Shown: positions 6,382 through 37,997 of the stretch, piece by piece
Position numbering within the stretch: position 1 is the stretch's first letter
How the letters are laid out: each line of letters starts with the position of its first letter
Assembly: GCA_021800275.1 (NCBI GenBank)
Contig: JAJYZB010000003.1
Span: forward strand, 680 to 64,679
Source: a bacterium
GTDB lineage: Bacteria > Vulcanimicrobiota > JABDET01
Length of the DNA stretch: 64,000 bases
Reading direction: 5' to 3'
Position numbers and translations under genes: made by a program
The notes under the pieces: generated by a model
Told to the model about the DNA's origin: nothing
The model's database searches: none
What the model saw: the letters and a program-made list of their open reading frames with translations, nothing else

Positions 6382-6861
6382 ATGGTGATCATGTCTCCTA
6401 AAAATCTGCAGTTGAGTCATGAAGCTGTCAGTTCCATGATTTCCCACGCTGAAACTGGATACCCTTATGAGATCTGTGGAGCTCTTTTGGGAAATGACAA
6501 AGATAAGGATCGTCTTATTGCAGAAACATTCCCTTTAGCTAATATGAAGGAGAACCAAAGAGAAACCCGATACCTCATTTCTCCTGATTCAGTTTTCCTG
6601 GCAGAAAAAGAAGCCAAACAAAAAGGGCTGGAACTTTTAGGCTTTTATCATTCACATCCTGACCATCCATCCATGCCTTCAGAGTATGATAAAGAACATG
6701 CCTTCCCCTGGTATTCTTATCTTATTTTATCTGTTGAAAAAGGAAAATTTCAGAAACTGACAGCTTGGGAACTAAAAGAAGACAGAAGCATGTTTATGCC
6801 CTGCACAATAAAAGGAAAAAATGATGGATTCGACGAAATCTTACAAAAAAGTCATGATTAA
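6382..6861 (+). CDS. JAMM/MPN+ family metalloprotease (Mec+/QbsD-like)
   Basis: Exact JAMM motif HSHPDHPSMPSEYD (HxHx7Sx2D) plus upstream Glu (YEICGALLG); lies between the cysteine-synthase gene and the ThiS-E1 fusion gene. Confidence 0.8.
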   Translation: MVIMSPKNLQLSHEAVSSMISHAETGYPYEICGALLGNDKDKDRLIAETFPLANMKENQRETRYLISPDSVFLAEKEAKQKGLELLGFYHSHPDHPSMPSEYDKEHAFPWYSYLILSVEKGKFQKLTAWELKEDRSMFMPCTIKGKNDGFDEILQKSHD

Positions 6862-6912
6862 AAAAAATTAAAACAAAACTAAACTCTGTTTGTAAAACTA
6901 AGGAGGAATTAA

Positions 6913-8378: not shown

Positions 8379-9662
8379 TCAAAACTCCATTTTGTAAAAA
8401 ACAAGTCCTGACCAGAGTTTAGGATAAAAATCAGTGGATTTATGCGGCATTTTTTCTCCTGATTCAGCCACTTTTCTGACCTGATTCGGTTTTACAGGAT
8501 TCAAGAAAAAAGCGAGCTTATGGGGATCCTCTTTAATCTCTTTCAAAACATCTTGGGGCCATCTGATATAGTTAATCCATTCATCGCTTTTTTCAGGCTG
8601 GATCTGAAGAATACGGTTAAAAATCAAAGAGTGAAGAACAAAAACGTCCAGTTCAACTAGGACCGGAGGAATTTCAGGAAACTCTTTTTTCAAATCTACA
8701 GATGTTTTCAAATTCAAAACGAAAAAGTCATCCTTGTCTGCCAACCCAAAAGAAAAACTCTGTCTTTCAATTCCCTCCAGCGCCTCCTGCAAACTGTCAA
8801 CCTTTCTCATGTCAAAATAATCAGGAAGTCTTTCCTTCAGCAGTCTCCTCTGAATTTCATTGAGATTTTTTAAAACCCGATGCGTTGGGAGTATTTTCAG
8901 CCCTTTATTCTGCAAGCTGACAAAAGTACCCAGTCTAAAATTAAAAGGGGCTGAATCATCGCTCGAAGAGCAGAAAACAGACCGCATTTCCTGCTGGTAA
9001 AGCAGACTTGTCTCATAGCGATGATGCCCATCAGCAATCAATAAATTTTTATCTTTAAAAAAATCCACAACTTGATTCAAAACTTCAGTTTTTGACAGTT
9101 TAAAAATCGAATGGGATGTGTCTGATGGATCAGTACACAAAAAAAGCGGTTCTCCCGCGCACTTTTCTAAAAATTTTTCGAGATACCGATCTGGATCATC
9201 GTATAAGAAAAAAACATGCTCAAAGTTCGTTCTGCATGTTTTCATTAATTTAAATCTGTCCTCTTTAGGTTTAGGAAAGGTCTTTTCATGCGGAAAAACT
9301 CCTTTCCCGAAAGGTTCTAGTCTCATCAAGCCAACAAGTCCTGCTCTTTCAAACCACTGCCCATAAAGTTTAAACCTCTGACGATACAAATAAAAAGATG
9401 GCTCTTTATCCTGAACTAAAACTCCTTCCTGAATCCACTTTCTCATCATTTGATCAGCCCGGGTGTAGCGGTTTTCTTTTTCAGTGTCATCACTGAAAAC
9501 TTTCCCAAAGATCAAACGCACAAAATTATAGGGACTACTGGCACAAAAGTCGTCCTGCATCTGAAGCGATATTTGATCATAAGGAGGGGCAATAACTTTG
9601 CCCATATCTTTGATCTCTTTCGTATTATAATGATACCCCTGGAATGGAATTAAACTGACCAT
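8379..9662 (-). CDS. DUF1015 family protein
   Basis: N-terminal MVSLIPFQGYHYN...KVIAPPYDQIS matches the DUF1015 signature (PF-RYN...APPYDVIS); start moved to the internal ATG at 9662. Confidence 0.6.
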   Translation of the reverse strand: MVSLIPFQGYHYNTKEIKDMGKVIAPPYDQISLQMQDDFCASSPYNFVRLIFGKVFSDDTEKENRYTRADQMMRKWIQEGVLVQDKEPSFYLYRQRFKLYGQWFERAGLVGLMRLEPFGKGVFPHEKTFPKPKEDRFKLMKTCRTNFEHVFFLYDDPDRYLEKFLEKCAGEPLFLCTDPSDTSHSIFKLSKTEVLNQVVDFFKDKNLLIADGHHRYETSLLYQQEMRSVFCSSSDDSAPFNFRLGTFVSLQNKGLKILPTHRVLKNLNEIQRRLLKERLPDYFDMRKVDSLQEALEGIERQSFSFGLADKDDFFVLNLKTSVDLKKEFPEIPPVLVELDVFVLHSLIFNRILQIQPEKSDEWINYIRWPQDVLKEIKEDPHKLAFFLNPVKPNQVRKVAESGEKMPHKSTDFYPKLWSGLVFYKMEF

Positions 9663-14791: not shown

Positions 14792-14832
14792 AAAAACCCA
14801 ATCTTTTTTCTCTGTCCTTCGAACTTCGAGTC

Positions 14833-17307
14833 TTATTCTTCTTCCTCGTCTTCTTCTAGATGAGCAAGAGCTGTCACTTCATCCTCTTCATCCAGACGAA
14901 TAATTCGAACCCCCTGGGTATCCCTTCCAATTCGTGAAATTCCATTCACTAATATTCGAATGAGTTGTCCATTTTTAGTAATGACCATCACTTCATCGTC
15001 TTCATTCACGGCTTCTACTCCAATAACAAAGCCTGTTTTGTCATTCACCTTGATGTTTTTTACCCCGACTCCTCCGCGTCCTTGAACTCGATACAGCTCC
15101 AAATCGGACCTTTTTCCATAACCATTGGAAGTCACAACCAGAACCTCTTTTTTCCCTCTTAAACTATCCATTGCAACCACGCCATCATCACTTCTCAATC
15201 GAACACCTCGCACCCCTTGGGTTCGGCGGCCCGTTGGGCGAACCAGCTTTTCATCAAAACGAATAGCAAGCCCATCTCTGGTCCCCAGCAGCACTTCCTC
15301 TTCCCCATCAGTCAACTGTACCCCAATTAAACTGTCCTCTTCATCCAGCTTAATTCCCATCAACCCTGTTCTAAAAATATTCGTATATTCGGTAATGGAA
15401 GTTTTTTTCACCTGCCCATTTTTTGTCGCCATAAAAAGATAATGTTCTGTGTCAAAAGACTTTACAGGAAAAACTGAAGCAATCTTTTCTTCCTTTGGAA
15501 TTTCAAGCAAATTGACAATAGCTGTTCCTTTTGCCTGCCTTCCTGCCTCTGGAAGTTCATGCACTTTTAACCTGAAAACTCTCCCTGTTCCAGTGAAAAT
15601 CATTAAATAATCATGGGTATCAGCCACAAACATGTGTTCAATAAAGTCTTCTGTTTTTAAGCCAACTCCTTGAACTCCTTTTCCACCTCTCCTCTGACTT
15701 CTGTAAGTATCCAGAGGAATTCGCTTAATATAGCCTGAATGAGACACAGTAACTACCATGTCCTCATGGGGGAGCAGATCCTCTACCTGAAAGTCAACTG
15801 GGGTTTCATCAATAATTTGAGTTTTCCGAGAGTCCCCGAACTTCTCTTTCAATTCTAAAATCTCTTTTTTTATGACGGCTAGAATCTCGGTTGAGCTGCT
15901 TAAAATTTTCTCCAAATTCTTAATGATGATTAAAAGCTCTTTATGCTCTTCTTGAATCTTCTTTCTCTCCAAACCAGTTAATCTCTGGAGCCTCATATCT
16001 AAAATCCCAGCCGCCTGGGCTTCTGATAGTTTGAAGCGGTTCGTTAGCTTTTCCCGGGCTTCTTGCGGATCGTTGGAATTTCTAATCAAAGCGATGACTT
16101 CATCTAGATGATCTAGAGCTATCAAGAGACCTTCTAACAAATGAGCTCTTTCTTTCGCCTTTTTTAACTCAAACTGGGTCCTTCGATAAACGACTTGATA
16201 GCGGTGTTTCAAATATTCTGAAATAATCTCTTTCAACGTTAAAATTCGAGGCACTCCATCTACTAACGCCAACATGATGACCCCAAAATTAGCCTGCAGA
16301 TCCGTATGTTTAAACAGTTGGTTTAAAACAATTTGAGGAATTGCGTCAGTTCTAAGCTCAATGACAATTCTCATCCCGTGCCGATCCGATTCATCCCGAA
16401 TGTCGCTGATTCCGTTAATCTTTTTATCTCTCACCAGTTCAGCGATCGTTTCAATCAATCGGGCTTTATTGACTTGATAAGGGATTTCAGTAATCACAAT
16501 TGACTCGTGTCTCCCTTTTTTCTGTTCAAAATCGGTTTTAGCCCTCATGGTGATAGAACCTCTGCCAGTCAAAAGTGCCTGACGGATCCCTTCTCTTCCC
16601 ATAATGAGCCCGGCTGTTGGAAAATCAGGTCCAGGAATATATTTTAATAGCTCCTCCCCTTCAATATCAAGTTGAAAACGAATCTCTAATCCTGCGCCTG
16701 AAATTTTAGTTTTGTCAATCGCTGCGCAAATTCCATCCACCACTTCTCCGAGGTTATGAGGAGGCATGTTGGTAGCCATTCCAACCGCGATGCCAGAGGA
16801 ACCATTAATCAGCAAATTGGGTAATTTTGCGGGAAGAATAACCGGCTCTTCATGATTGTTGTCAAAGTTTGGTCTAAAATCAACGGTTTCTTTATCCAAA
16901 TCTTCCAATAAAGTCATTGCAATTTTAGAAAGTCGCGCTTCAGTATAACGATATGCGGCGGGTGGATCCCCATCAACAGAACCAAAATTTCCATGGCCTT
17001 CCACAAGAGGATATCGCATGGAAAAATTCTGAGCCATGCGAACCAGAGCATCATAAACCGCCATGTCTCCATGAGGATGATACTTGCCGATCACATCTCC
17101 TACAACAGTCGCGCTCTTTTTAAAAGGCTTATCAGGGGTTAACCCTAAATTGTCCATGGAGTAAAGAATGCGGCGGTGAACTGGTTTTAATCCATCTCTC
17201 ACATCTGGCAGAGCCCTGGAAACAATAACACTCATGGCGTAATCCAGGTAAGATACTTTCATTTCATCTGAAATACGAATAGGAAGAATCGTTTGAGCAA
17301 TCGTCAT
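14833..17307 (-). CDS. gyrA: DNA gyrase subunit A
   Basis: N-terminal [27 protein letters not shown], GyrA-box QRRGGKG in the C-terminal beta-pinwheel, acidic C-terminal tail EEDEEEE. Confidence 0.9.
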
Positions 17308-17322
17308 TGGAAAAACTCCTCG

Positions 17323-18558
17323 CTAAATTTTTACAACTTCTTTTCTCCCATAATGGGAATTGATGTAGTCATTCAAAATTTTAATGAACTCTTGTACAAT
17401 GCCGTTTCCTTTTAAGGTAGTGTATAGTTTGCCATCCATAAAAACAGGAGCTTTAGGTTCTTCCCCTGTTCCAGGCAGAGAAATTCCAATATGCGCATGT
17501 TTAGATTCTCCTGGACCATTCACAACGCAGCCCATGACAGCGACTTTCATTTCTTCAATCCCATGATACTCTTTTTTCCAAATCGGCATCTGGGCTTTAA
17601 GGTACTCCTGGATTTCATGCGCCATCTCTTGAAAAAAGGTGCTGGTTGTCCTCCCGCAGCCTGGACAGGCGCTGACTTGCGGATTAAAAGCGCGAATTTC
17701 TAAAGACTGCAAAATCTGCTGTCCAACTCTAACCTCTTCTGAGCGATCCCCTCCTGGAGCAGGAGTCAAACTAATCCGAATGGTATCCCCTATCCCTTCC
17801 TGCAGCAAAATCGCCAGGGCTGCTGTACTGGCAACAATTCCTTTTGTTCCCATTCCCGCCTCTGTTAAACCAAGGTGAAGAGGGTAATCGCACCTTCGTG
17901 ATAGAGATCTATAAGCATCCACTAAATCCTGAACCCCTGACAACTTTGCGCTTAAAGTAATGCGATTATGGGGAAGGCCATGTTTTTCAGCCAGATCCGC
18001 TGATCTAACAGCAGATTCAACCATGGCATCAAGAGTCACTTCCCTAGCTTCTTTAGGTTTCAAAGCTCGAGCATTTTCATCCATGAGCTGAGTCAGCAGC
18101 TCATGGTCAAGCGAACCCCAGTTCACCCCAATTCTAACAGGTTTTTCATATCGAACTGCAAGCTCGACAATTTTTAAAAAATTTTCGTCTCTTCTTTTTC
18201 CCGTACCGACATTACCCGGATTGATTCGATATTTATCCAGCAATTTCGCTGTTTCAGGGTATTCACTTAAGAGAATGTGCCCATTGTAATGGAAATCCCC
18301 AATAATAGGGACTGAATACCCCATGTCTCTCACCCTTTTTACCATTGCAGGGACGACTTGAGCGGCTTCTTTCGTGTTAACTGTAACTCGAACCAATTCC
18401 GAGCCGGCTTTTGCCAGAGCAGCAACTTGTTTGGCTGTTGCCTCTAGATCAGCAGTATCTGTATTGGTCATCGCCTGAACCCGAATTGGATTGTCTGCGC
18501 CAATCCCGATTTCCCCAATCCTAACTTCAACCGTTTTCTTTCTTTTAATACAAGCCAT
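17323..18558 (-). CDS. ispG: 4-hydroxy-3-methylbut-2-enyl diphosphate synthase (flavodoxin)
   Basis: N-terminal [30 protein letters not shown] and C-terminal Fe-S cluster motif CPGCGRT are typical IspG/GcpE. Confidence 0.85.
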
Positions 18559-18682
18559 TTTATAAGAATAATTCGCTATTTTCCGATTTTCCCCCTTTTG
18601 TTCATAAGACGTTCCCAGACGAACAGCCGTTCCATGAACATCGAATCCTGCTTTAGAATTACTTTCATTAGACTATGTTCGC

Positions 18683-19864
18683 TTATAAAGTTAAAAATCG
18701 CTCGTCTGGATCGAAAAGTCGTTTGTGTTCATTCAGGGCAAAGTGATCGGTCATTCCAACGATATAATCGCACACGACTCTTTTTAAAGATGAAGAACCA
18801 ATCCTTTTTTGAATGTGGGGAGGGAGCTGCTCAGGCACGTCAACATAAGTATTGAACAGATCATGCACAATTCTCTTTCCCTTTTCATTCATCTGAATGA
18901 CTTTATAATGACGATACAACTTCTCTTTCAAAAACAACCTCAATTCTTCATGCATTTTTCCCATTTCTTCCGAAAATTGAACCAAAGAAGTTTTCGCGTT
19001 CCGCACATCCTCAAGGGTTTTAATTTTCAATCTTTCCAGGTTTTCCGCAGTGGTTTGAATCAAATCGCCCATTTCAGCATTGATCATGGTTTTGATAGTT
19101 TCATGGATCAAGCTGCGAATGTGTCCATCTGTAAAATCATCTTTTACTTGACGGCAGCAGCGATTCCAGAGAGATACTTCCTTTAAATCCCCCAATTCAA
19201 TCATTCTGGATCTCAAGGCATCATCCAGGTCATGATTGGAATATGCAATTTCATCACTTTTATCTACGACAAGGGTTTCAAGAGTTGGAGCTTTCTCGAT
19301 TTCGTATTCTTGAATTTCTACGCAAAACGGAAGAAGTGTATGTTTAACAATTCCTTCACGAACTTCAAAGGTTAAATTTAAGCCTGGAAATTGGGGATAT
19401 CTATCTTCTAAAACTTCAACAATTCGCAGTCCCTGCAGATTGTGGTTAAACCCACCCTCCTCTTTCAACAGGTGATTCATCACCTGTTCTCCTGAGTGAC
19501 CAAACGGTGGGTGTCCAATATCATGAGCCAATGCTAGAACTTCACATAAATCTTCATTCAGCTTTAAAACACGAGCTGCGGTTCGAGCAATCTGGGCTGT
19601 TTCAAGGGAGTGGGTCAATCGTGTTCTATAATAGTCCCCTTCATGATAAATAAAAACTTGCGTTTTATATTCCAGCCTTCTGAATGCAGAGGAATGAATA
19701 ATTCGGTCTCGATCTCTCTGGAAAGCTGTGCGGTAAGAATGTTCTTTTTCAGAATACTTCCTTCCACGGCTTCTGCTGGAAAACACAGAGTATCCGGCCA
19801 GGATCTTGTTTTCATGGTCCTCCAATTCTTCGCGAAAAGCTAAACCCAACTCAGCAGGTTTCAT
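18683..19864 (-). CDS. dgt: dGTP triphosphohydrolase-like HD-domain phosphohydrolase
   Basis: HD motif region HSLETAQIAR...LAHDIGHPPFGHSGE characteristic of the dGTPase family. Confidence 0.8.
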   Translation of the reverse strand: MKPAELGLAFREELEDHENKILAGYSVFSSRSRGRKYSEKEHSYRTAFQRDRDRIIHSSAFRRLEYKTQVFIYHEGDYYRTRLTHSLETAQIARTAARVLKLNEDLCEVLALAHDIGHPPFGHSGEQVMNHLLKEEGGFNHNLQGLRIVEVLEDRYPQFPGLNLTFEVREGIVKHTLLPFCVEIQEYEIEKAPTLETLVVDKSDEIAYSNHDLDDALRSRMIELGDLKEVSLWNRCCRQVKDDFTDGHIRSLIHETIKTMINAEMGDLIQTTAENLERLKIKTLEDVRNAKTSLVQFSEEMGKMHEELRLFLKEKLYRHYKVIQMNEKGKRIVHDLFNTYVDVPEQLPPHIQKRIGSSSLKRVVCDYIVGMTDHFALNEHKRLFDPDERFLTL

Positions 19865-20979
19865 TGTATTAAAGAAGTCCTCTCATATTCAATGTTTAAC
19901 AGCAAAGCGATACAGATGAGATTAACGATCAAACTTGTTCCCGCCGAACTAATAAATGGAAGCGGTATCCCAGTAATCGGCATAATCCCAATGGTCATTC
20001 CGATATTGATAACAATGTGGACTAAAAACAGGGAAACAATACCACAGGCTAATAGTTTTCCCAGTTTATCTTCTGTTTCCAGCGCAATTTTAGTCCCGTA
20101 CCAGAGGATGGAAAAATACAGCAACAGCAAGAAAAAAGACCCTATCCATCCCAACTGCTCTGCAACCACAGTAAAAATAAAATCTGTGGCATGCTGCGGC
20201 ACAAACTGGAGAGTTGTCTGGCCGCCTTGAAAAAGTCCTTTTCCCAGCACTCTTCCAGATCCTACCGCAATTAAAGCCTGGATCAAATTCCATCCGCTTC
20301 CTGTTGGGTGTTTGAAAGGATGCAAAAATCCTAGCAGTCTTTCCCACTGATAGGGTTTCATAACTTTAAACATGCCTGCAGCACCTGCAGCAATTGTGCC
20401 TAAAAGATACAAAGGATTAACTCCTGCAAAAAATGAGATAAAAAGAAAAAGAGAAGCTAAAAGAATAGACGTTCCCATGTCAGGCTGTATTAAAACTAAA
20501 AAAAGGGGGAAAATAGTTAAAATACCCGCTTTCAAAAAAGCCATTAAACCGGATGGATTTTCCTGCTCCGAAAAAAAAACACACAAAGCAAGGATCAGGG
20601 CTAATTTAGCAACTTCAGAGGGTTCAAAACTTAAGGCTCCAATTCCAATCCATCTCTGAGAACCATAAGCAGAATGCCCTTTTAGGCGCACTGCCAGCAG
20701 GAGTAAAATAGAAATGCCATAAAAAAAATAACTCAAACGAATGGACACAGGAAATTTTTTAAACGTAAAATCCCATTTGCAAATTTTTTTATACCCCAGA
20801 ATAAAAACAACAGACGCTGACAATGAGCCCACGAAAAAAGCGAGGAGTTGTTTTCCCGCAGTCGAAAATCCAAAATCTCTATAAGTAGCTGTGTAAATCA
20901 TTAAAATTCCGAAAGCGGCTAAAAGTAGAGTTGACAGAACAATAATCCAATTTATTCGGGAGTACCAGGGTTTGTACAT
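19861..20979 (-). CDS. SEDS family peptidoglycan glycosyltransferase (RodA/FtsW)
   Basis: Polytopic membrane protein with the FtsW/RodA/SpoVE pattern (YQxERL, GSGW, PxxxTDFIF); overlaps the dgt start by 4 nt. Confidence 0.75.
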   Translation of the reverse strand: MYKPWYSRINWIIVLSTLLLAAFGILMIYTATYRDFGFSTAGKQLLAFFVGSLSASVVFILGYKKICKWDFTFKKFPVSIRLSYFFYGISILLLLAVRLKGHSAYGSQRWIGIGALSFEPSEVAKLALILALCVFFSEQENPSGLMAFLKAGILTIFPLFLVLIQPDMGTSILLASLFLFISFFAGVNPLYLLGTIAAGAAGMFKVMKPYQWERLLGFLHPFKHPTGSGWNLIQALIAVGSGRVLGKGLFQGGQTTLQFVPQHATDFIFTVVAEQLGWIGSFFLLLLYFSILWYGTKIALETEDKLGKLLACGIVSLFLVHIVINIGMTIGIMPITGIPLPFISSAGTSLIVNLICIALLLNIEYERTSLIQ

Positions 20980-20986
20980 TGAATTT

Positions 20987-22327
20987 TTATTTCTCTTTTA
21001 GAAGATCTTCGATAAAGGTTACATAAATATCTGCTTTTTGAACAGCATCATGGCGAACCAATCTTCTCTGAAAATCAAGATTTGTGGCAATTCCAGCAAT
21101 TTCAGATTCATCCAGGGCTGATCTCAATTTCCTCAAAGCTTCCTGACGGTTTTTCCCATAAACGATCAATTTTCCAATCATGCTGTCATAAAAAGGAGGG
21201 ATAGAGTCTCCTATGCGCAGATGCGAATCTATTCGAATTCCTGGACCCCCTGCCCAGTGGAGTTTAGTAATCGTGCCTGATGATGGAGCAAAAGTTTGAG
21301 GATCCTCAGCGTTAATGCGACACTCAATAGCATGACCTTGAATCACAACCTGCTCCTGTTTAAAGCCAAGCTTTTCTCCTGAAGCAATTAAAATCTGCTC
21401 TTTAACCAGATCCATTCCGGTTACCATTTCTGTTACCGGATGTTCTACCTGAATTCTGGCATTGACCTCAATCATATAAAAATTTCCATTGGGCTCCATT
21501 AAAAATTCAACTGTTCCTGCGCCTGAATACTGGACAGATTGAGCCATTCGAACTGCCATTTTCTGCATCTTTTCTCGCACGGCATGACTCACGACAGAGG
21601 AGGGAGCTTCTTCCATGACCTTCTGATGTTTTCTCTGAAGAGAGCATTCACGCTCACCGAGCGCTGCGGCATTCCCCAAGCGGTCTCCTAAAATTTGGAC
21701 CTCTATGTGCCGAGGGCGAACCAGATACTTCTCAAGATACACTCGAGAATCTCCAAAAGCAGCTTCTGCTTCACCCTGAGCTAAAGGAAGATTTTTTTCA
21801 AGTTCTTTAGCAGAGAGTGCGGTTCGCATTCCTTTCCCCCCACCCCCTGCGGCCGCCTTGATCATGACTGGAAATTCAATTTTTTTAGCTTCTTTTAATG
21901 CCTGCTCAAGGGTCTCAACCACTTTTGTGCCAGGAATAACTGGAATACCGGATTTCTGAGCAATTTCTCTTGCCCTGGCTTTATCTCCCAATTGACTCAT
22001 AGCTTCTGCCGATGGGCCGATGAAAGTTAGATTGTGACTCTGACAAATTTCCGCGAATTGAGGATTTTCCGAAAGAAACCCATACCCAGGATGTACGGCA
22101 TCAGCTCCTGAAATCAAAGCCGCGCTGACGATATTATGAGCGTTTAAATAGCTTTTAACGGCTGGCGGAGGTCCTATGCAGATAGATTGATCCGCAAGCT
22201 TCACATGCAGAGAATTTCGATCGGCTTCTGAAAAAATGGAAACCGTTGGAATTCCAAGTTCTCTACAAGCGCGAATAATGCGAACTGCGATTTCACCTCG
22301 ATTTGCGATTAAAATTTTACGAAACAT
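20987..22327 (-). CDS. accC: biotin carboxylase (acetyl-CoA carboxylase subunit)
   Basis: MFRKILIANRGEIAVRIIRACRELGI N-terminus, ATP-grasp GGGGKGMR, and colinearity with AccC throughout. Confidence 0.85.
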   Translation of the reverse strand: MFRKILIANRGEIAVRIIRACRELGIPTVSIFSEADRNSLHVKLADQSICIGPPPAVKSYLNAHNIVSAALISGADAVHPGYGFLSENPQFAEICQSHNLTFIGPSAEAMSQLGDKARAREIAQKSGIPVIPGTKVVETLEQALKEAKKIEFPVMIKAAAGGGGKGMRTALSAKELEKNLPLAQGEAEAAFGDSRVYLEKYLVRPRHIEVQILGDRLGNAAALGERECSLQRKHQKVMEEAPSSVVSHAVREKMQKMAVRMAQSVQYSGAGTVEFLMEPNGNFYMIEVNARIQVEHPVTEMVTGMDLVKEQILIASGEKLGFKQEQVVIQGHAIECRINAEDPQTFAPSSGTITKLHWAGGPGIRIDSHLRIGDSIPPFYDSMIGKLIVYGKNRQEALRKLRSALDESEIAGIATNLDFQRRLVRHDAVQKADIYVTFIEDLLKEK

Positions 22328-22747
22328 TCAAAATTCCAAAGTGAACAAAACTTTCCCGAAATCAACCATGTCTCCCTCTGCCGCATGAATTTCAAGAAGT
22401 CTGCCAGATTTTTCAATCTCAAGTGGATAAACAACGTTAATAGAAGTTATAAAACCAAGCTCTTTACCGTCTGAAATAACAGACCCGATTTCAGGCATTT
22501 TATCGGGGAAATGGAAGATTCCCACAACAGAAGATCGAATTTGAAAAGTATGGTCATCATTCTTTTTTTCATTCTCAAGTTCTAGAGACTGCTCCTGATA
22601 CGGAGAAATGGCTCCTTTTTTTCTGCGAAACTTAAACCCAAGTCCTTCTTTTTTCCAACTCAACTCAATCATATCAGAATCTTTAATTTGACTTAATAAT
22701 TCGTTTAATTCTTCTAAAAATTGCGGCATGTTCCAGGCTGAGGACAT
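22328..22747 (-). CDS. biotin carboxyl carrier protein (AccB)-like, lacking the canonical biotinyl-lysine motif
   Basis: Position (stop abuts accC start) and overall BCCP architecture; C-terminal hammerhead aligns with BCCP, but the E-A-M-K-M position reads T-S-I-N-V with no lysine. Confidence 0.6.
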   Translation of the reverse strand: MSSAWNMPQFLEELNELLSQIKDSDMIELSWKKEGLGFKFRRKKGAISPYQEQSLELENEKKNDDHTFQIRSSVVGIFHFPDKMPEIGSVISDGKELGFITSINVVYPLEIEKSGRLLEIHAAEGDMVDFGKVLFTLEF

Positions 22748-22756
22748 AAAGTTATT

Positions 22757-23365
22757 TTATCCTGAATGGAGGGTAATCCCACGATCTCTTGCCAGCTCTG
22801 AGGCTAGAGGAGTGACAATCGTTCCTTTAGGAAGAATTAAAGAGCGAATCCCTTTCTCCAGAAACTTCACCATGTCTTCATAAGTTACTACCTTCTGGAC
22901 GGCTGCTGCTTCCCTGCCAGAATCCTGTATCTCGAATTCAATGCCAAAATTTTTTGTTCTCTCAATCAGTTCAGATAGGGATTGAAAAAGAACTTTGTTC
23001 TTGTTTTTCCAAAAATTTCGCTGATCCCATTTAGGATCCGTAATCTTGACCTTGCAGCCCTCTAACAAAACCTGGCCAACAGCCTCTAAAAAAGGGGTAT
23101 TCCAAATTAAATGGGCCAATTTACTCAGGCTTGCAGCAGACAGATGAATAATTTCAATCCCATCCAATTCCTGAACTTGAAAACTCATTCCGGGTTTCCA
23201 TAAAATCCGATCCGATGGCAGACTGCCAGGAGACCAATTGGGATCATCTGAGAATAGCAAGACTTTACCCTTAAGAGAAATGGGTTCTGGCTGCATTTTA
23301 TTCAGAACCTGAAGGGTAACCTGCTCCACAAGCGAGCGAAGACGATTGGAGTCAGGAAGCTCCAT
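22757..23365 (-). CDS. hypothetical protein with C-terminal EutQ-N-terminal-like motif (putative shell-protein-binding segment)
   Basis: C-terminal VVTYEDMVKFLEKGIRSLILPKGTIVTPLASELARDRGITL resembles the ~40-aa motif at the N-terminus of EutQ-family microcompartment proteins (LITANDI...ASIITPEAREVAELLGF); 6-nt gap to the upstream BMC-H gene. Confidence 0.4.
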   Translation of the reverse strand: MELPDSNRLRSLVEQVTLQVLNKMQPEPISLKGKVLLFSDDPNWSPGSLPSDRILWKPGMSFQVQELDGIEIIHLSAASLSKLAHLIWNTPFLEAVGQVLLEGCKVKITDPKWDQRNFWKNKNKVLFQSLSELIERTKNFGIEFEIQDSGREAAAVQKVVTYEDMVKFLEKGIRSLILPKGTIVTPLASELARDRGITLHSG

Positions 23366-23371
23366 TATTTT

Positions 23372-23683
23372 TTAAGCTTTTGCCTTTTCAAGCCTTTCTT
23401 GTGGAAGACCAATGGGCAAAACTTTGTCCAGATCAGTATGGGGCCTTGGTATCACGTGAACTGCTACCAATTCCCCGATTTTCCGCGCGGCTGCCGCTCC
23501 TGCATCTGTTGCTGCTCGAACTGCTGCCACATCCCCGCGCACAATGGCTGTAACAAGTCCTCCTCCAATTTTCTCATAGGCGGCGAGTTTTACATTAGCC
23601 GCCTTGCACATGGCATCTGAAGCTTCAACCATGGCAACCAATCCTCGCGTTTCGATCATTCCTAAAGCTTCATAAGTGGTCAT
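23372..23683 (-). CDS. bacterial microcompartment shell protein, BMC-H (PduA/EutM type)
   Basis: Near-canonical BMC-H sequence [86 protein letters not shown]; ATG at 23683 with AGGAGG 5 nt upstream (track start at 23734 is a TTG extension). Confidence 0.85.
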
Positions 23684-23841
23684 TTTGTCCTCCTTTAAAT
23701 TCGGCTCTTTAAAGAACCTTACATCCTCTTTCAACCGCAGCCGCTTCAGCAGGTTGTCGTTTAAATGATAGCTATTCTCGGCATTTTCGGCAGAACTGCC
23801 TTTTCCTCCTTTATCTTTGCAGCAGGCGTTATTCCCATATT

Positions 23842-24075
23842 ATGCACATAGTCTCTTCAATTCAAGGAAAACTTGACGGCAGAAAATCTTCACTGGATTT
23901 ATTAAAAGCTTCTTTTCCAGCAGGAACTGTCACAGGAGCCCTAAAGGTTCGCGCCATGCAGATCATTCAAGAATTAGAACGCTCTCCACGCGGACCCTAT
24001 AGTGGCTGTGTGGGATACTATAATTTTTCAGGAGATCTGGATACCTGCATTACGATCCGCGCCATTGTAATGTAA
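23842..24075 (+). pseudogene. remnant of anthranilate / aminodeoxychorismate synthase component I (TrpE/PabB) C-terminal region
   Basis: 77-aa ORF ...[53 protein letters not shown] matches the conserved chorismate-binding C-terminal segment of TrpE/PabB (about 450 aa full length); no upstream in-frame continuation. Confidence 0.6.
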
Positions 24076-24223
24076 AGTAAAAAATTTGGCTTCAGGCAGG
24101 AGCATGAATTGTGGCAGATTCTACTCCAGAAATGGAATACAGGGAAACTTTAAATAAAATGGAAGGGATAAAGAAAGCTGTAAAACTGGCTGAAAATGGC
24201 TTGAAGCTTTAAAGGCTGAACTT

Positions 24224-24802
24224 ATGATTATCATGATTGACAACTATGACTCTTTCACCTACAACATTGTTCAGTATTTAGGGGAACTTGGAGGCGAAGT
24301 CCTTGTTTTTCGAAATGATGAAACAACTCCTGAGCAAATAAACCGCTTAAATCCTGAAGGGATCGTGATCTCTCCAGGACCTGGAACTCCTCTTGAAAGT
24401 GGAATCTCCAATGAAGTGATCCGAGAATTTGGAAGTCGAATCCCTGTCCTCGGAGTCTGTCTTGGACACCAGTGTATTGCTCATGTTTTTGGAGGGAAAG
24501 TGGTTGAAGCCCCTCGCCTTATGCACGGAAAATCCTCTCCTATCTATCATGACCAGAAAACAATCTATCAGGGACTCCCCAATCCTTTTGAAGCAGGGAG
24601 ATATCATTCTTTAATTGTTTCAGAGGATTCTCTCCCACCTTCTCTGGAGGTCACAGCCTTTACAAAAGAAGGAGAGATCATGGGAATAAGACACAAAGAA
24701 TTTTCCATTGAAGGAGTACAATTTCACCCTGAAAGCATTTTAACCCGAGAAGGAAAGCTGCTCCTAAAAAACTTTTTAATTTTTACAAACAACTCTCATT
24801 AA
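24224..24802 (+). CDS. glutamine amidotransferase subunit of anthranilate/aminodeoxychorismate synthase (TrpG/PabA)
   Basis: MIIMIDNYDSFTYNIVQYLGELG N-terminus; catalytic Cys in GVCLGHQ; His/Glu in VQFHPES; full length 192 aa. Confidence 0.8.
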   Translation: MIIMIDNYDSFTYNIVQYLGELGGEVLVFRNDETTPEQINRLNPEGIVISPGPGTPLESGISNEVIREFGSRIPVLGVCLGHQCIAHVFGGKVVEAPRLMHGKSSPIYHDQKTIYQGLPNPFEAGRYHSLIVSEDSLPPSLEVTAFTKEGEIMGIRHKEFSIEGVQFHPESILTREGKLLLKNFLIFTNNSH

Positions 24803-24888
24803 AACGTCAGCACGTCTCAAAACCGATGCAAAGGAAATCATATGGCTTCTTTTAAAAAATTTTTAATAAAACTTTAAAAAAAGAAAAC

Positions 24889-25209
24889 TTGAACCTGACA
24901 GAAGCTTTCCAGGCTTTTAAACTGCTCTCTCAGGACCAGGAGCTTCTTTCTTCACAAATTGCTGCATTCTTAACTGCCATCCATCTCCCCGTCGTGGTCG
25001 ATCCAAGTCATGCGGCAGGCCAGAGAGATTTAGTTCCTAGCCTGGCAAAAGGGGGAATAGCAGTAGGGGCAGATGGTTTAATCATAGAAGTTCACCCTGA
25101 ACCAGAAAGAGCTCTGTCAGATGGAGCCCAGTCCCTCACCCCACCCATGTTCAGCCAGTTAATGAAAGAACTTCACTCGGTGGCAGAAGCAGTTGGGAGA
25201 AAACTTTAG
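24889..25209 (+). pseudogene. remnant of DAHP synthase / KDO8P synthase family (C-terminal about 100 aa only)
   Basis: [51 protein letters not shown] matches the C-terminal barrel strands of type I-beta DAHP synthase (LPV.VD.SH..G.RDL....A.A.GADG...EVHP.P..ALSD..Q); the N-terminal two-thirds are absent. Confidence 0.6.
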
Positions 25210-30369: not shown

Positions 30370-31842
30370 TCAATAAAAGTTAGTTTTTCTGCTGGAACCC
30401 GTATAGTCCACATAAACTGCTTTCCATTCTGTAAAAAAGTCAAGCGCTTGTTTTCCCATCTCACGCCCCCCCATTCCCGAGTTTTTCATTCCACCAAAAG
30501 GGACCTGAGCTTCTCCACCAATTGTCGCGGAATTAATATGCACCATTCCCACTTCAATCTCGTCAATAAACTCAAAAACTTTTTCTGCATCTTGAGTAAA
30601 TATCGAAGCAGACAGCCCATATTCTACTCCATTTGCCAGCTTAAGAGCATCAGATAAATTTTTAGCCGATAAAACAGAAAGGACAGGTCCAAAAACCTCT
30701 TCTTTTGCTATTCTCATGTCAGAGGTTACATGAGAAAAAACGGTAGATTCAACATAAAATCCTTTCAGATGTTTAGAGTCTTTTAAGCGGTGTCCCCCAC
30801 AAACTAATTTTCCTCCTTCGTTTTTCCCTACTTCAATATACTGCAGCACTTTTTTAAGTTGATTTTCATCTACACAGGGTCCCAGACTGTCAGACATTAG
30901 TTTCGCTTTTTCTACGATTTTCTGCGTGAATTGTTCAAGCGCAGATTCTTCTACAATCACTCTACTGGTTGCTGTACACCTCTGTCCTGTTGAGCCAAAA
31001 GCCCCAAGCGCAGCGGCTGAAGCAGCCAGATCCAAATCGGCATCATTAAGAACAATGACCGCATTCTTACCTCCCATTTCCAGTTGAATAGGCTTGCCAT
31101 GCTGCCCTGCAAGTGCCTGCAGTTTTCTTCCTGTTTCAGTTGAACCAGTAAAAGAAACTGCTTTTACTTCTGGGGCTTTAACCAACGCATCTCCTATCAC
31201 AGAACCTGAGCCAGTAATGCAGTTAACAACTCCTGCAGGAAAATCTGCTTCTCGGAACGCTTCCATCAAAAGCACTGCAGTCCAAGGAGTTAGACTGGAA
31301 GGCTTTAAAACAACTGTATTCCCACAAATCAAAGAGGCAGCCATCTTCCAGATTGGAATGCTGACAGGGAAATTCCACGGAGTAATCAATGCCACAACTC
31401 CCAATGGCTCTCTACGGGTATAAATAAAATTTTTAGGCAGCTCAGATGGGATCGTCTCTCCATAGAATCTTCTCCCTTCGCCTGCAAAAAATTCTAAAGT
31501 ATTCAGGGCTTTATTGACTTCTCCCAAAGATTCTTGAAAAGATTTGCCTTCTTCCCGAGTTAAGGCTTCTGACACTTCTTCTTTCCTTTTCTCCAAAATC
31601 TGCATAACCTTCACCAGCAGTTTTCCTCGGTTAGGAGCTGGGAGTCTTTTCCAATCATAAAAAGCTTTTTCCGCCGATTCAACGGCATTCTTCACATCTT
31701 CAAAAGAAGATTCTTGAAAATAACCAAGTATTTCTTCAGCGTTGGCAGGATTGATGTTGGGTTTTATTTTCCCACTGGTAGATGGAACCCATTTTCCTCC
31801 AATGAAATTCCCCCACGTTTTCAATTCAAGCTTAACAGACAT
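30370..31842 (-). CDS. NAD(P)-dependent aldehyde dehydrogenase
   Basis: ALDH motifs FTGSTETGRKL, LEMGGKNAVIV, catalytic Cys in GQRCTA; ATG at 31842 with AAAAGGAGA RBS (track start at 31896 is an extension). Confidence 0.85.
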   Translation of the reverse strand: MSVKLELKTWGNFIGGKWVPSTSGKIKPNINPANAEEILGYFQESSFEDVKNAVESAEKAFYDWKRLPAPNRGKLLVKVMQILEKRKEEVSEALTREEGKSFQESLGEVNKALNTLEFFAGEGRRFYGETIPSELPKNFIYTRREPLGVVALITPWNFPVSIPIWKMAASLICGNTVVLKPSSLTPWTAVLLMEAFREADFPAGVVNCITGSGSVIGDALVKAPEVKAVSFTGSTETGRKLQALAGQHGKPIQLEMGGKNAVIVLNDADLDLAASAAALGAFGSTGQRCTATSRVIVEESALEQFTQKIVEKAKLMSDSLGPCVDENQLKKVLQYIEVGKNEGGKLVCGGHRLKDSKHLKGFYVESTVFSHVTSDMRIAKEEVFGPVLSVLSAKNLSDALKLANGVEYGLSASIFTQDAEKVFEFIDEIEVGMVHINSATIGGEAQVPFGGMKNSGMGGREMGKQALDFFTEWKAVYVDYTGSSRKTNFY

Positions 31843-31910
31843 AACTGTCTCCTTTTTCAAGGTGGGATTCAATCTGTCAGCTGCAAGCCACCTCAAAAAA
31901 TCTTAATAAC

Positions 31911-36608: not shown

Positions 36609-37997
36609 TTATGCGCTCACACTCACTTTTTCAAGTTCCTCCCATTCTACTTCATGGGAAGGCCAAAAATCTTTCATTTGGGTTGAAACTCGCATGTATG
36701 AAACAGAATAATTCAGCTTTTCTAGAGATTCTTTAAGCCACTTTAAATGAGACTCTGCAAATGACTTTAAATGCTCTTCAACATAAAATTTTATATTAAC
36801 CGATCTTTTCAATATTTTAACTTCGCAGCCAATCTTCCCGAGATGGGGGGTTGTCATGGAAAATTCCAGTTTTGTTCTGTCGAGGTTCACTATTTTTTTG
36901 CCTGCTTGATTCTTTTCATACTGAATTTTCAGCTGCGCTGTCCCATTTCCAGCCAGAAAATAAACCGGAATCTGAAGATAAAGGAAACTTCCATTCCGAT
37001 TATCAGCATTGATAAGATGTTCTCCATTGAAAAAAGTCCCTAACTGAACCAGAAGGTCTGAAAGCTGCTGATTTTTACCATTTTGGCCGGCTTTTGCCAG
37101 TTCCCCAGTCAACTCTTGGAGAAGAGGCTGAAGAGAAGCTGCCGATTCTTTTTCTTTAATGCCCGCAAGAGCAACCAGATTGTCTAACCGATTTTTATTT
37201 TTCTGCTTCGTTTCTTTCTGAGGCTCCAGGAGATATTCAGCCAGAATCCCTGGGAGATAAGATAAAAGCTGACTGATTCTGCCATCTGCCCCTGGCATCT
37301 GGGCAAAACTCTGGAGCTGAGAAAGATAGCTTCCCAACTCAGGTTTTGTCTGGAAAAAATTTGAAAGAGTTTGAAGGTTTTCCTGGGTCGTTGGAAGTCC
37401 TGCATTTTGCAGAAAACTGAACGCTTGCATTGAACTTTTATCAGGATTTCCTCCTAACAAGCTCAAAATCGTGAATACATTCTCTTTTGTAACCGAAAGA
37501 CCAAACTTCATCATAACGCTCACAAGGTTTGCCGTTGTATCATTCACGGGAATTTTTAAAGAATTCAGTTGGGCAATCACATCTTCAAAACTCATAGGTT
37601 GAAATGCTAAAGAACGATTCAAAGTAAGGAGTTTTAAGGTCAGCATCTGGCCATTCAGAGCCAGCAGTTCCATTTGAAGCAGATCGCCAGGATTTAAAGG
37701 AAGAGTAGATTCTGCTAAAACCGTTTGACCTGAAACATTAACCAAAAATTTACCGCCTTGAGTCTGCTGCAGAACCTGACCATTGACCTGCTGCCCAATC
37801 TGAAGAGGCTGGCCTGGAGTTCCAGATTGAACTCCCTGGGGCTGAGACATAGGAGCTGAGGCTTGAGAGGCAGCTGTTGAAACCGTATTAAAAGCGCCAA
37901 TCCAGTTCTCAGCGGCTATAAATTGATTAGCCTCTGCCAGATTTACAACCGAAGAAAGCGAATTTAAGCTGCTCATCTCCTCTATATTATAGAGCAA
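36609..37997 (-). CDS. putative flagellar hook-length control protein (FliK-like), Gln/Pro-rich
   Basis: Position at the head of the flagellar operon; Q-rich low-complexity segment plus a segment resembling the Flg_hook domain (GQVLQQTQGGKFLVNVSGQTVLAESTLPLNPGDLLQMELL); weak. Confidence 0.4.
   Translation of the reverse strand: MLYNIEEMSSLNSLSSVVNLAEANQFIAAENWIGAFNTVSTAASQASAPMSQPQGVQSGTPGQPLQIGQQVNGQVLQQTQGGKFLVNVSGQTVLAESTLPLNPGDLLQMELLALNGQMLTLKLLTLNRSLAFQPMSFEDVIAQLNSLKIPVNDTTANLVSVMMKFGLSVTKENVFTILSLLGGNPDKSSMQAFSFLQNAGLPTTQENLQTLSNFFQTKPELGSYLSQLQSFAQMPGADGRISQLLSYLPGILAEYLLEPQKETKQKNKNRLDNLVALAGIKEKESAASLQPLLQELTGELAKAGQNGKNQQLSDLLVQLGTFFNGEHLINADNRNGSFLYLQIPVYFLAGNGTAQLKIQYEKNQAGKKIVNLDRTKLEFSMTTPHLGKIGCEVKILKRSVNIKFYVEEHLKSFAESHLKWLKESLEKLNYSVSYMRVSTQMKDFWPSHEVEWEELEKVSVSA

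Follow-up and report, generated by a model that had tools for sequence, protein, structure and literature searches.

A bacterial microcompartment hexamer gene and a candidate linker gene head a biotin carboxylase array, apart from a second locus of pentamers and SPU-type enzymes

Introduction

Why should the gene for a hexameric shell protein of a bacterial microcompartment (BMC-H) head an array that continues into a biotin carboxylase gene, with no other BMC gene nearby? The window studied here, a 64-kb stretch of bacterial DNA taken at its full length, poses this question, and by the rule of the BMC catalogue, under which a main locus requires BMC-H plus the pentamer BMC-P (PMC8217296), it holds no main locus. 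The earlier note on this DNA had offered a degraded remnant, a shell protein recruited to another role or a satellite of a locus elsewhere as explanations. We propose, at a probability of about 0.7, that BMC-H and the adjacent gene product X form the hexamer/linker half of a split metabolosome of the SPU (sugar-phosphate utilisation) type (Axen 2014; Sutter 2021, PMC8217296), with vertices and enzymes encoded elsewhere in the genome. This reading is preferred to a remnant because relatives of X occur in contiguous BMC loci, because a second locus holds SPU enzymes but no BMC-H within +/-10 kb, and because X and two of these enzymes have an N-terminal helix in common.

Results

The BMC-H gene and the array that it heads

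The features of the window on which the argument turns are as follows.

23776..23815, minus strand: conserved 40-nt block upstream of BMC-H, aligned with 9540..9659 of the related contig L007
23689..23695, minus strand: ribosome-binding site AAGGAGG, read from the sequence, 5 nt ahead of the ATG at 23683
23372..23683, minus strand: BMC-H hexamer shell protein of EutM/PduA type, 103 aa (PF00936 and NCBIfam EutM)
22757..23365, minus strand: X, a 202-aa BMC-associated protein and proposed shell-cargo linker (TIGR02536/PduM/EutQ similarity)
22328..22747, minus strand: BCCP-like protein, 139 aa, lacking the biotinyl-lysine (TIGR00531 BCCP similarity)
20987..22327, minus strand: accC, biotin carboxylase (BC), 446 aa (TIGR00514, 644.6 bits, cutoff 626.5)
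19861..20979, minus strand: rodA, SEDS family, 372 aa (PF01098 at 5.9e-80)
18683..19864, minus strand: dgt, dGTPase-like HD phosphohydrolase, 393 aa (PF01966 and PF13286)

Judged by its sequence, the product of 23372..23683 is a canonical BMC-H, predicted to assemble as a facet-tiling hexamer, which bears out the earlier description of it as near-canonical. PF00936 matches as a single domain over residues 6-81 of 103 (2e-29; 101.8 bits, cutoff 24.5), the NCBIfam EutM model is passed with 148.8 bits (cutoff 133), and over 89 residues the protein shares 78% identity with E. coli EutM, three elements being identical in the alignment: the edge lysine of DAMxK, the pore loop GGG and the tiling motif IPRPH. 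Identity is 87-94% to the BMC-H of four related cassettes and 79-84% to those of the contiguous BMC loci L017 and L018. The AAGGAGG at 23689..23695 places the start at the ATG at 23683, so that the 120-aa ORF from the TTG at 23734 is an over-extension.

Upstream, the conserved 40-nt block falls, in the sister genome L007, within the final codons of a gene at 8526..9635; a radical-SAM (CofH/Mqn-like) gene precedes BMC-H there, and the block is either the leftover 3' end of that gene or a conserved leader. Directly upstream of the BMC-H region the window holds pieces of genes: the tail of trpE, part of a DAHP synthase gene and perhaps the tail of an mqn gene. The promoter/terminator scan stayed at background level and was uninformative, Rfam and ARAGORN scans of the window returned no RNA family and no tRNA, and no regulatory k-mers common to the regions upstream of BMC-H and of BMC-P were found.

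Downstream, the tight packing that the earlier note had described is present throughout, with gaps of 6 nt (BMC-H to X), 9 nt (X to BCCP-like), 0 nt (BCCP-like to accC) and 7 nt (accC to rodA) and a 4-nt overlap between rodA and dgt; BMC-H and X are probably co-transcribed with the BCCP-like gene, accC, rodA and dgt. Five lineages of 40-61% GC have retained the order BMC-H/X/BCCP-like/accC(/rodA), with different flanks each time, tight or overlapping gaps within the cassette and accC about 70% identical, and the most distant of these lineages (40% vs 61% GC) have a tetranucleotide correlation of r=0.09. RodA holds the same position in L007 and L014, while dgt follows it in L007 and is absent there in L014. 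Such persistence of order exceeds the expectation from random adjacency and could reflect a functional tie. Identical copies were assembled independently from six samples.

The absence of other BMC genes nearby, also noted earlier, extends to the whole window: tblastn across the 64 kb turned up neither another BMC-H nor another BCCP, and no EutN/CcmL, and a Pfam survey of the other ORFs found no further BMC gene or BCCP and no PF03319. Aldehyde dehydrogenases near the cassette (window 30370..31896, L007 4066..5496, L014 540..2009) were rejected as BMC signature enzymes. The three fall into as many non-acylating classes, none with a match of the EutE/PduP type, and their closeness is thus taken as coincidence.

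X combines a EutQ-like module with a cargo-type helix

Three modules are recognised in X: an amphipathic helix at the N-terminus, an alpha/beta domain in the middle and, at the C-terminus, a module resembling EutQ H1/H2. The AF2 model (pLDDT 79.9) has a helix at 6-23 and domains at 35-145 and 151-201. The earlier note had held that the protein ends in a segment like the EutQ N-terminus and had called for its alignment against EutQ and PduM. That alignment exists: residues 157-202 match residues 2-48 of E. coli EutQ by BLASTP (E=0.002, 27% identity, 64% positives) and, as a family profile, by hhalign (probability 81%, E=1.2e-5), and X matches the PduM C-terminus at 1e-3. The matches to TIGR02536 'eut_hyp' (7e-14; 51.9 bits, below the cutoff of 152.6) and to PduM (TIGR04493, 18.7 bits, below the cutoff of 50) are stronger than that to the EutQ N-terminus. 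X is related to the TIGR02536 and PduM families and, by curated thresholds, a member of neither. X has no Pfam match at E<=0.1 and no NCBIfam EutQ match, the alignable part of EutQ is confined to 2-48, with no counterpart in X of its C-terminal cupin (acetate kinase) domain, and a sequence search of solved structures gave only noise (E>=0.58). The central domain bears a weak resemblance to HFCD flavoproteins, as does the N-terminal helix to EutQ 79-100, the H4 region that binds cargo.

In EutQ itself, contact with the EutM/EutL shell is made by helices H1/H2 and contact with cargo peptides by H3/H4 (PMC12487888), and it is because of this published shell-binding role that the EutQ-like module in X may be mechanistically meaningful. 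X belongs to a BMC-associated superfamily, as shown by its TIGR02536, PduM and EutQ matches and by its more distant homologues (P0006, P0007), which lie between BMC-H and BMC-P in L017 and L018. X is 41-74% identical across the five lineages, and the window copies of BMC-H and X are free of frameshifts; a profile search of genome contigs with the X alignment reached one GTDB species representative only.

X, the aldehyde dehydrogenase (AldDH) and the DeoC aldolase of the second locus described below have in common an N-terminal helix like an encapsulation peptide, the motif being LRSLVEQVTLQVL (X), LNKIIEEVVAKVS (AldDH) and LEKLVDEITKEVL (DeoC). Among the remaining ORF N-termini of the window, L007 and L023, none matched a pattern made from the three motifs, this pattern having been designed after the three sequences were seen, and the AldDH and DeoC ORFs of L020 (GTG starts) lying outside the scan. 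The accC product and the BCCP-like protein do not carry the motif.

A BCCP homologue without the biotinyl-lysine precedes accC

The BCCP-like protein scores 41.7 bits on TIGR00531 BCCP (1.6e-10, below the cutoff of 115.2) and 20.0 bits on PF00364, under the gathering score of 22.1. Where E. coli AccB has AMKM, the aligned residues are SINV in both the window and L007, AVNV in L013 and AIQV in L014, so the biotinyl-lysine is lost in all four full-length copies adjoining X, a feature that the earlier note had not mentioned. In a pattern scan of the metagenome collection this lysine-less type was seen only beside X, and a metagenome scan with the BCCP-like alignment added a single locus, of the P0005 type. 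The protein is thus a BCCP homologue without the biotinylation motif. In that respect it is like the BADC proteins of plants, which are BCCP homologues that carry no biotin and associate with BC (PMC12706156); our search of the literature on bacterial lysine-less BCCPs found plant BADC work only. The accC product has the full three-domain architecture (PF00289, PF02786 and PF02785) and shares 52% identity with E. coli AccC along its full length, and is apparently intact, catalytically too. No carboxyltransferase gene was found near accC in the 64-kb window.

Pentamers and SPU enzymes lie in a second locus

L017 has the contiguous order BMC-H/X/BMC-P/AldDH/Zn-ribbon/RpiB with a distant X homologue, and L018 is likewise contiguous; in neither does the BMC-H/X module go with carboxylase genes. 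A BMC-P search seeded from L017 led to P0072 and P0070, whose loci read BMC-P/AldDH/RpiB/BMC-P/BMC-P/DeoC and hold three PF03319 genes. The AldDH is of the acylating kind (NF011927, 650 bits, cutoff 403), DeoC (L020 12791..13714; TIGR00126, 295.6 bits) has an N-terminal extension of 88 aa, and RpiB (L020 11777..12229) passes the RpiB model cutoffs. The second locus showed neither a PTAC nor an alcohol dehydrogenase that could recycle cofactors, and in L020-L025 (six contigs, two species) the +/-10 kb around the BMC-P genes contain no PF00936 gene. By comparison with L017 and L018 the fission point looks to be exactly between X and the first BMC-P.

In a sister MAG both halves are in one genome, the BMC-H (MCL4512702.1), X (MCL4512703.1) and accC (MCL4512705.1) belonging to the same NCBI accession series as the AldDH (MCL4512909.1) and BMC-P (MCL4512910.1). 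Samples 3300039716 and ERZ27237177 contain both the window cassette and the second locus; in tetranucleotide composition the window correlates with L020 at 0.991, compared with 0.982-0.986 when thirds of the window are set against one another, and the two loci match in how far they diverge from the sister genome (68-91% for the cassette, 77-85% for the second locus). We infer that the window genome also encodes the L020 locus, on the basis of sample co-occurrence, composition and matched divergence and not of one assembly.

Discussion

A split metabolosome and its assembly

In the arrangement that we propose, BMC-H hexamers would tile the facets, and X would dock to them through its C-terminal EutQ H1/H2-like module while its N-terminal amphipathic helix pairs with the encapsulation-peptide helices of AldDH and DeoC, thereby tying cargo to the shell. 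The other half would contribute the BMC-P triplet, the acylating aldehyde dehydrogenase, RpiB and the DeoC aldolase, the three BMC-P closing the vertices. [quoted passage not shown] With the first BMC-P split off from X, the BMC-H/X pair would have come to head the BCCP-like/accC/rodA/dgt array, where its adjacency to carboxylase genes would by default be inherited operon packing with no physical role in carboxylation, and where the array position may provide constitutive hexamer expression.

The operon could alternatively be a functional unit in which BMC-H and X are coupled to the carboxylase genes, which we consider unlikely. The biotin-less BCCP homologue might bind BC in the manner of BADC and tether the carboxylase to the microcompartment surface, or might throttle acetyl-CoA carboxylase (ACC) in step with SPU acetyl-CoA output; that a BADC-like protein couples BC to an acetyl-CoA-producing microcompartment by such tethering to BMC-H/X or gating of ACC seems rather improbable. 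Coupling would account for a gene order kept with tight gaps across five lineages of differing GC and flanks, for the missing biotinyl-lysine in 4/4 full-length proteins beside X and the confinement of this type to X neighbourhoods in the metagenome pattern scan; it is also in keeping with an accC that looks catalytically intact, with acetyl-CoA being both the end product of the SPU pathway and the ACC substrate (PMC8217296), and with the association of non-biotinylated BADC proteins with BC (PMC12706156). However, rodA and dgt, unlinked to carboxylation, occupy the same tight array, thus tight packing in this lineage does not imply common function, and vertical inheritance of an old junction is expected to give the same pattern. 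The helix motif is missing from the accC and BCCP-like products, a carboxyltransferase gene is missing nearby, and in L017/L018 the BMC-H/X module goes with BMC-P and AldDH and not with carboxylase genes. The earlier note had remarked that BMCs have not been described in linkage to biotin-dependent carboxylase subunits, and our literature search, in which no BMC–biotin carboxylase link was found, bears this out.

The window pair might also be a redundant satellite that tunes the shell composition of a complete main locus elsewhere with its own BMC-H and perhaps BMC-T, for which the odds are similarly poor. Shell-gene-only satellite loci are common, with tuning of shell permeability proposed as a general function (PMC8217296), SPU subtypes often include a BMC-T (PMC8217296) and none was located here, and the inspection around the BMC-P locus covered +/-10 kb. 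Of the three earlier suggestions, a satellite of a BMC locus elsewhere comes closest, in that both the source samples and the sister MAG contain a second locus. With no PF00936 gene in 20 kb of that BMC-P/enzyme locus (six contigs, two species), however, the window pair does not duplicate the shell genes of a complete locus. Because contiguous relatives place BMC-H/X directly ahead of the matching BMC-P/AldDH genes, the BMC-H and X of the window are better read as the missing piece than as an extra copy, and X bears the helix motif of the cargo enzymes. The shell protein may also have been recruited to another role, as the earlier note suggested. Decay of a lost metabolosome to a remnant with no present function, likewise suggested earlier, is very improbable: the upstream fragments (trpE, DAHP synthase, possibly mqn) and the want of a BMC partner within 64 kb would fit it, but the BMC-H and X ORFs are intact, with a strong BMC-H ribosome-binding site, no frameshifts in the window copies and conservation across five lineages (BMC-H 87-94%, X 41-74%), identical copies come from six independently assembled samples, and an intact partner locus exists.

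Relation to known systems

The split metabolosome that we favour resembles the SPU type, whose signature is pfam01791, pfam02502 and AldDh with a BMC-P triplet (PMC8217296), in its DeoC-type aldolase, RpiB, acylating pfam00171 AldDH, BMC-P triplet and EutM-like BMC-H, and in N-terminal extensions on DeoC and AldDH that resemble encapsulation peptides. It differs in that the sole BMC-H seen heads the accB-like/accC/rodA array outside the enzyme/pentamer locus, so that neither half unites BMC-H and BMC-P as a main locus does; in that no BMC-T was found in the window or within +/-10 kb of the second locus; and in that the hexamer is accompanied by a TIGR02536-like protein with a cargo-type helix. 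Scattered shell genes, a BMC-P triplet and candidate-phylum hosts recall FRAG BMCs and fission-type satellites (Sutter 2021), whereas here the enzymes are recognisable as the SPU set and the break point can be placed exactly. Like the EutQ linker (PMC12487888; PMC4827028), X is encoded directly after a EutM-like gene and has, in its C-terminal 46 residues, a likeness to EutQ 2-48 (H1/H2, EutM/EutL-binding); unlike EutQ it has no cupin/acetate-kinase domain, and its module order is permuted, the H1/H2-like part being C-terminal. The BCCP-like protein shares with plant BADC (PMC12706156) the lack of the biotinyl-lysine and is encoded beside BC, its expected partner, but it is bacterial and, beyond the shared BCCP ancestry, probably of independent origin.

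If the carboxylase coupling were true, it would tie a metabolosome to the committed step of fatty-acid synthesis for the first time and provide the first BADC analogue from a prokaryote, and a BCCP-like protein acting as plant BADC does would extend that regulatory principle to bacteria. Under the split reading, one BMC-H and one linker with a cargo-type helix and a EutQ-like module would make up a natural minimal module, separable from vertices and cargo and useful for understanding or engineering shell-cargo coupling. An 'orphan' shell gene can then be the essential hexamer of a compartment with its other parts at a distance, and BMC surveys demanding BMC-H and BMC-P in one locus would miss or misclassify such organisms. 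Fragmented BMC loci occur in related organisms as well: in L027 a BMC-P triplet stands alone.

Gene array and shell hexamer

Six minus-strand genes are arranged head to tail in the window, running from a hexamer shell protein (BMC-H) to a dGTPase-like gene:

23372..23683 (-), BMC-H, 103 aa, first of the array
22757..23365 (-), unnamed protein X, 202 aa, 6-nt gap after BMC-H
22328..22747 (-), BCCP-like protein, 139 aa, 9-nt gap after X
20987..22327 (-), accC, 446 aa, 0-nt gap after the BCCP-like gene
19861..20979 (-), rodA, 372 aa, 7-nt gap after accC
18683..19864 (-), HD-domain dGTPase-like gene, 393 aa, 4-nt overlap with rodA

BMC-H matches PF00936 (2e-29), passes the NCBIfam EutM equivalog (148.8 bits, cutoff 133) and has 78% identity with E. 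coli EutM, with which it shares the tiling lysine, GGG pore loop and IPRPH motif. The genuine start codon is the ATG at 23683, preceded by an AAGGAGG site; the TTG start that carries the ORF to 23734 was rejected as an over-extension. The window accC exceeds the cutoff of the accC equivalog model and shares 52% identity with E. coli AccC along its full length. The remaining window genes are housekeeping, flagellar and pilus/secretion-type (T2SS-F). Since neither a second BMC domain nor EutN/CcmL was found within the 64-kb window (nor a second BCCP or a carboxyltransferase), the domain matches and window survey bear out the earlier note, which had described a lone BMC-H and a EutQ-motif gene heading an accB-like/accC array with no other BMC genes nearby.

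Protein X and its cassette

X has no Pfam match and lies near the NCBIfam model TIGR02536, an uncharacterised family of eut operons, at 7e-14, well under the curated cutoff; its final ~50 residues weakly match the PduM C-terminus (NCBIfam). The resemblance of its C-terminus to the EutQ N-terminal motif, also proposed in the earlier note, held when the alignment was run: residues 157-202 align with E. coli EutQ residues 2-48 (BLASTP E=0.002; hhalign of the X family profile, probability 81%, E=1.2e-5), a segment corresponding to helices H1/H2. In EutQ, H1/H2 bind the EutM/EutL shell and H3/H4 bind cargo encapsulation peptides (2025 study, PMC12487888), and EutQ-EutM binding was reported in an earlier pull-down study (PMC4827028). 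The X N-terminus aligns weakly with EutQ 79-119, the cargo-binding H4 region (E=0.03). An AF2 model built from 17 homologues (pLDDT 79.9) places an N-terminal helix at 6-23, a central α/β domain at 35-145 and a small C-terminal α/β domain at 151-201. Foldseek found no significant PDB match to X, the central domain showing local similarities only, to HFCD flavoproteins.

In a full HMMER pass over 1.84 billion representative proteins X proved rare, yielding three clusters of close relatives and some two dozen weak matches; those of the weak matches that were scanned all hit TIGR02536 under its cutoff. Every close cluster lies inside the same cassette.

Cassettes compared with the window (cluster, loci, identity of X, gene order)
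P0002, L007-L011, 74%, BMC-H/X/BCCP-like/accC/rodA/dgt
P0003, L012, 52%, BMC-H tail, X, start of the BCCP-like gene
P0004, L013 (GC 61%), 44%, BMC-H/X/BCCP-like/accC
P0005, L014-L016 and L026, 42%, BMC-H/X/BCCP-like/accC/rodA

Among cassette lineages BMC-H is 87-94% and X 41-74% identical, and the window accC is about 70% identical to that of L013 or L014. The flanks are never alike between the window (trp/aro gene fragments upstream; ispG, gyrA downstream), L007 (menaquinone (futalosine) genes; thrC) and L014 (HTH regulator and tRNA-Leu; hemB). The tRNA-Leu, at L014 2884..2969, stands directly upstream of the P0005-type BMC-H, a boundary unlike those of the window and L007.

A second locus with vertex proteins and enzymes

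Outside the cassettes, the nearest homologues of X (P0006 and P0007, at about 30% identity) lie in contiguous BMC loci, ordered BMC-H/X/BMC-P/AldDH/Zn-ribbon/RpiB in L017 and BMC-H/X/BMC-P in L018, with BMC-H 79-84% identical to that of the window. These gene orders indicate that BMC-H/X is an ordinary BMC module, normally followed directly by the pentamer vertex protein (BMC-P) and aldehyde dehydrogenase (AldDH). A search with the L017 BMC-P returned >2000 matches, of which P0072 and P0070, near the top, had the right source profile. Their loci read BMC-P/AldDH(489 aa)/RpiB/BMC-P/BMC-P/DeoC, and no BMC-H was found near them in 20 kb on six contigs. The AldDH is an acylating enzyme of EutE/PduP type (NF011927, 650 bits, cutoff 403), DeoC scores 295 bits with TIGR00126 and carries an 88-residue N-terminal extension, and RpiB is above its cutoffs. 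In the published catalogue DeoC (pfam01791), RpiB (pfam02502), AldDh and a BMC-P triplet define the sugar-phosphate utilisation (SPU) type, for which catabolism of deoxyribose phosphate from DNA debris is proposed (PMC8217296).

The N-termini of X (...LRSLVEQVTLQVLNK), AldDH (...LNKIIEEVVAKVSQK) and DeoC (...LEKLVDEITKEVLNS) all follow one amphipathic pattern, which is characteristic of encapsulation peptides. Among the ORF N-termini of the window, L007 and L023 (the sister genome's cassette and BMC-P locus) no further protein matched it; the scan left out the AldDH and DeoC ORFs of L020, the BMC-P locus assigned to the window's organism (GTG starts), and shows specificity only, because the pattern was devised after seeing the three sequences. 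The helix is missing from the X proteins of L017 and L018. In DeoC (L020 12791..13714; also L023 12775..13731) the stretch that separates the encapsulation-peptide-like helix from the aldolase domain contains a conserved cysteine cluster, CEALTGECNACGHC, at residues ~43-57, which could be a metal or Fe-S site.

In the sister organism both BMC halves are in one genome: X (MCL4512703), BMC-H (MCL4512702), accC (MCL4512705), BMC-P (MCL4512910) and AldDH (MCL4512909) belong to a single accession series of one MAG. For the window and the P0072 locus, we infer a common genome from shared samples (JGI 3300039716 and ERZ27237177), a tetranucleotide correlation with L020 of 0.991, as high as between window thirds, GC (0.40 against 0.41) and similar divergence from the sister genome (cassette proteins 68-91%, second-locus proteins 77-85% identical). 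The samples hold two cassette types and two BMC-P-locus types, so that with one pair tied by accession the other follows by elimination. NCBI names for near-identical proteins of the lineage conflict ('Candidatus Eremiobacteraeota bacterium' against 'Firmicutes/Bacillota bacterium').

In L020 the BMC-P/enzyme locus is followed (14800..18708) by recO, mreC, a small membrane protein and a PBP2-type transpeptidase. The usual neighbours of rodA are mreC/PBP2-type rod-shape genes, and the window rodA (19861..20979) sits after accC, so the rod-shape genes are divided between the two BMC halves. This division, absent in the sister genome (L023), may be the trace of a single ancestral rearrangement.

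A probable split metabolosome

We consider BMC-H and X to make up one half of a split SPU-type metabolosome, supplying its hexamer and its shell-cargo linker, at a probability of about 0.7, the window's genome link being indirect and the view covering the window and the loci described here. The break in the locus would fall precisely at the junction of X with the first BMC-P; X would most likely dock on hexamers via its EutQ-H1/H2-like C-terminal module, its N-terminal peptide most likely joining cargo by helix-helix contacts. That BMC-H/X is a redundant satellite of a complete BMC locus elsewhere is improbable, though the view around the BMC-P locus spans only +/-10 kb, and a decaying remnant is far less credible still, given ORFs that are intact and conserved and a partner locus that is intact. 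Of the options raised in the earlier note, the satellite is borne out in part, BMC-H/X being most likely a satellite-like yet essential piece, the hexamer half of a split locus, and neither spare nor relic. BMC gene sets in pieces have been described before, as FRAG types and fission satellites (Sutter 2021, PMC8217296), with shell genes spread across several sites. A bare BMC-P triplet (L027 8001..8872, JGI 3300038743), with no BMC-H or enzyme nearby, occurs in a related organism, and such fragmentation seems common in the clade. On this reading the hexamer/linker module of a split SPU-type BMC is carried in a housekeeping operon. The reading accounts for most of the orphan-shell puzzle, but not for the conserved association with carboxylase genes and the Lys-less BCCP.

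A biotin-less BCCP homologue beside accC

The BCCP-like protein retains the BCCP N-terminal region and C-terminal fold signature, under all curated cutoffs. The biotinyl-lysine is lost directly upstream of an intact accC in four of four lineages, the counterparts of AMKM in E. coli AccB being:

window 22328..22747 (-), SINV
L007 10609..11034, SINV
L013 1182..1601, AVNV
L014 3958..4407, AIQV

The window and L007 proteins have no hairpin lysines and are therefore unable to carry biotin. Because the neighbouring accC looks fully functional, a biotinylated partner is implied at another site; if ACC is active, a canonical BCCP must exist elsewhere. The closest known analogues are the plant BADC proteins, BCCP homologues that carry no biotin and bind biotin carboxylase (PMC12706156), and the BCCP-like protein may be their bacterial analogue; we found no bacterial counterpart of BADC or Lys-less BCCP in the literature. 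Because this protein accompanies BMC-H/X throughout the sampled cassettes and acetyl-CoA is the end product of the SPU pathway, it is conceivable that the compartment is functionally linked to acetyl-CoA carboxylase. We nevertheless regard such a link as improbable, since rodA and dgt are equally tightly packed yet functionally unrelated, accC and the BCCP-like protein lack the cargo helix, and the contiguous relatives L017 and L018 have no carboxylase genes.

Other features of the window

Four large ORFs have no Pfam match at E<=1e-8:

36609..37997 (-), 462 aa
38210..39211 (+), 333 aa
39437..42070 (+), 877 aa
59382..60689 (-), 435 aa

At 6382..8370 (+) a JAB/MPN deubiquitinase-like gene precedes a ThiS-ThiF-rhodanese fusion (485 aa), a pair suggestive of a compact module of the ubiquitin-like sulfur-carrier or conjugation type.

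Immediately upstream of BMC-H, 23842..25209 (+) contains:

(+), chorismate-binding enzyme (trpE/pabB type), last 77 aa only
(+), glutamine amidotransferase (trpG/pabA type), 192 aa, full length
(+), DAHP synthase piece, 106 aa, C-terminal

The same fragments recur in the independently assembled contigs L001-L003, so an assembly error can be dismissed, and the region has the look of a rearrangement scar. Also upstream of BMC-H, a 40-nt block (23776..23815) is nearly identical to the end codons of the radical-SAM CofH/Mqn-like gene found ahead of BMC-H in the sister genome (L007, about 9598..9640). The block is what remains of such a gene or else a conserved operon leader.
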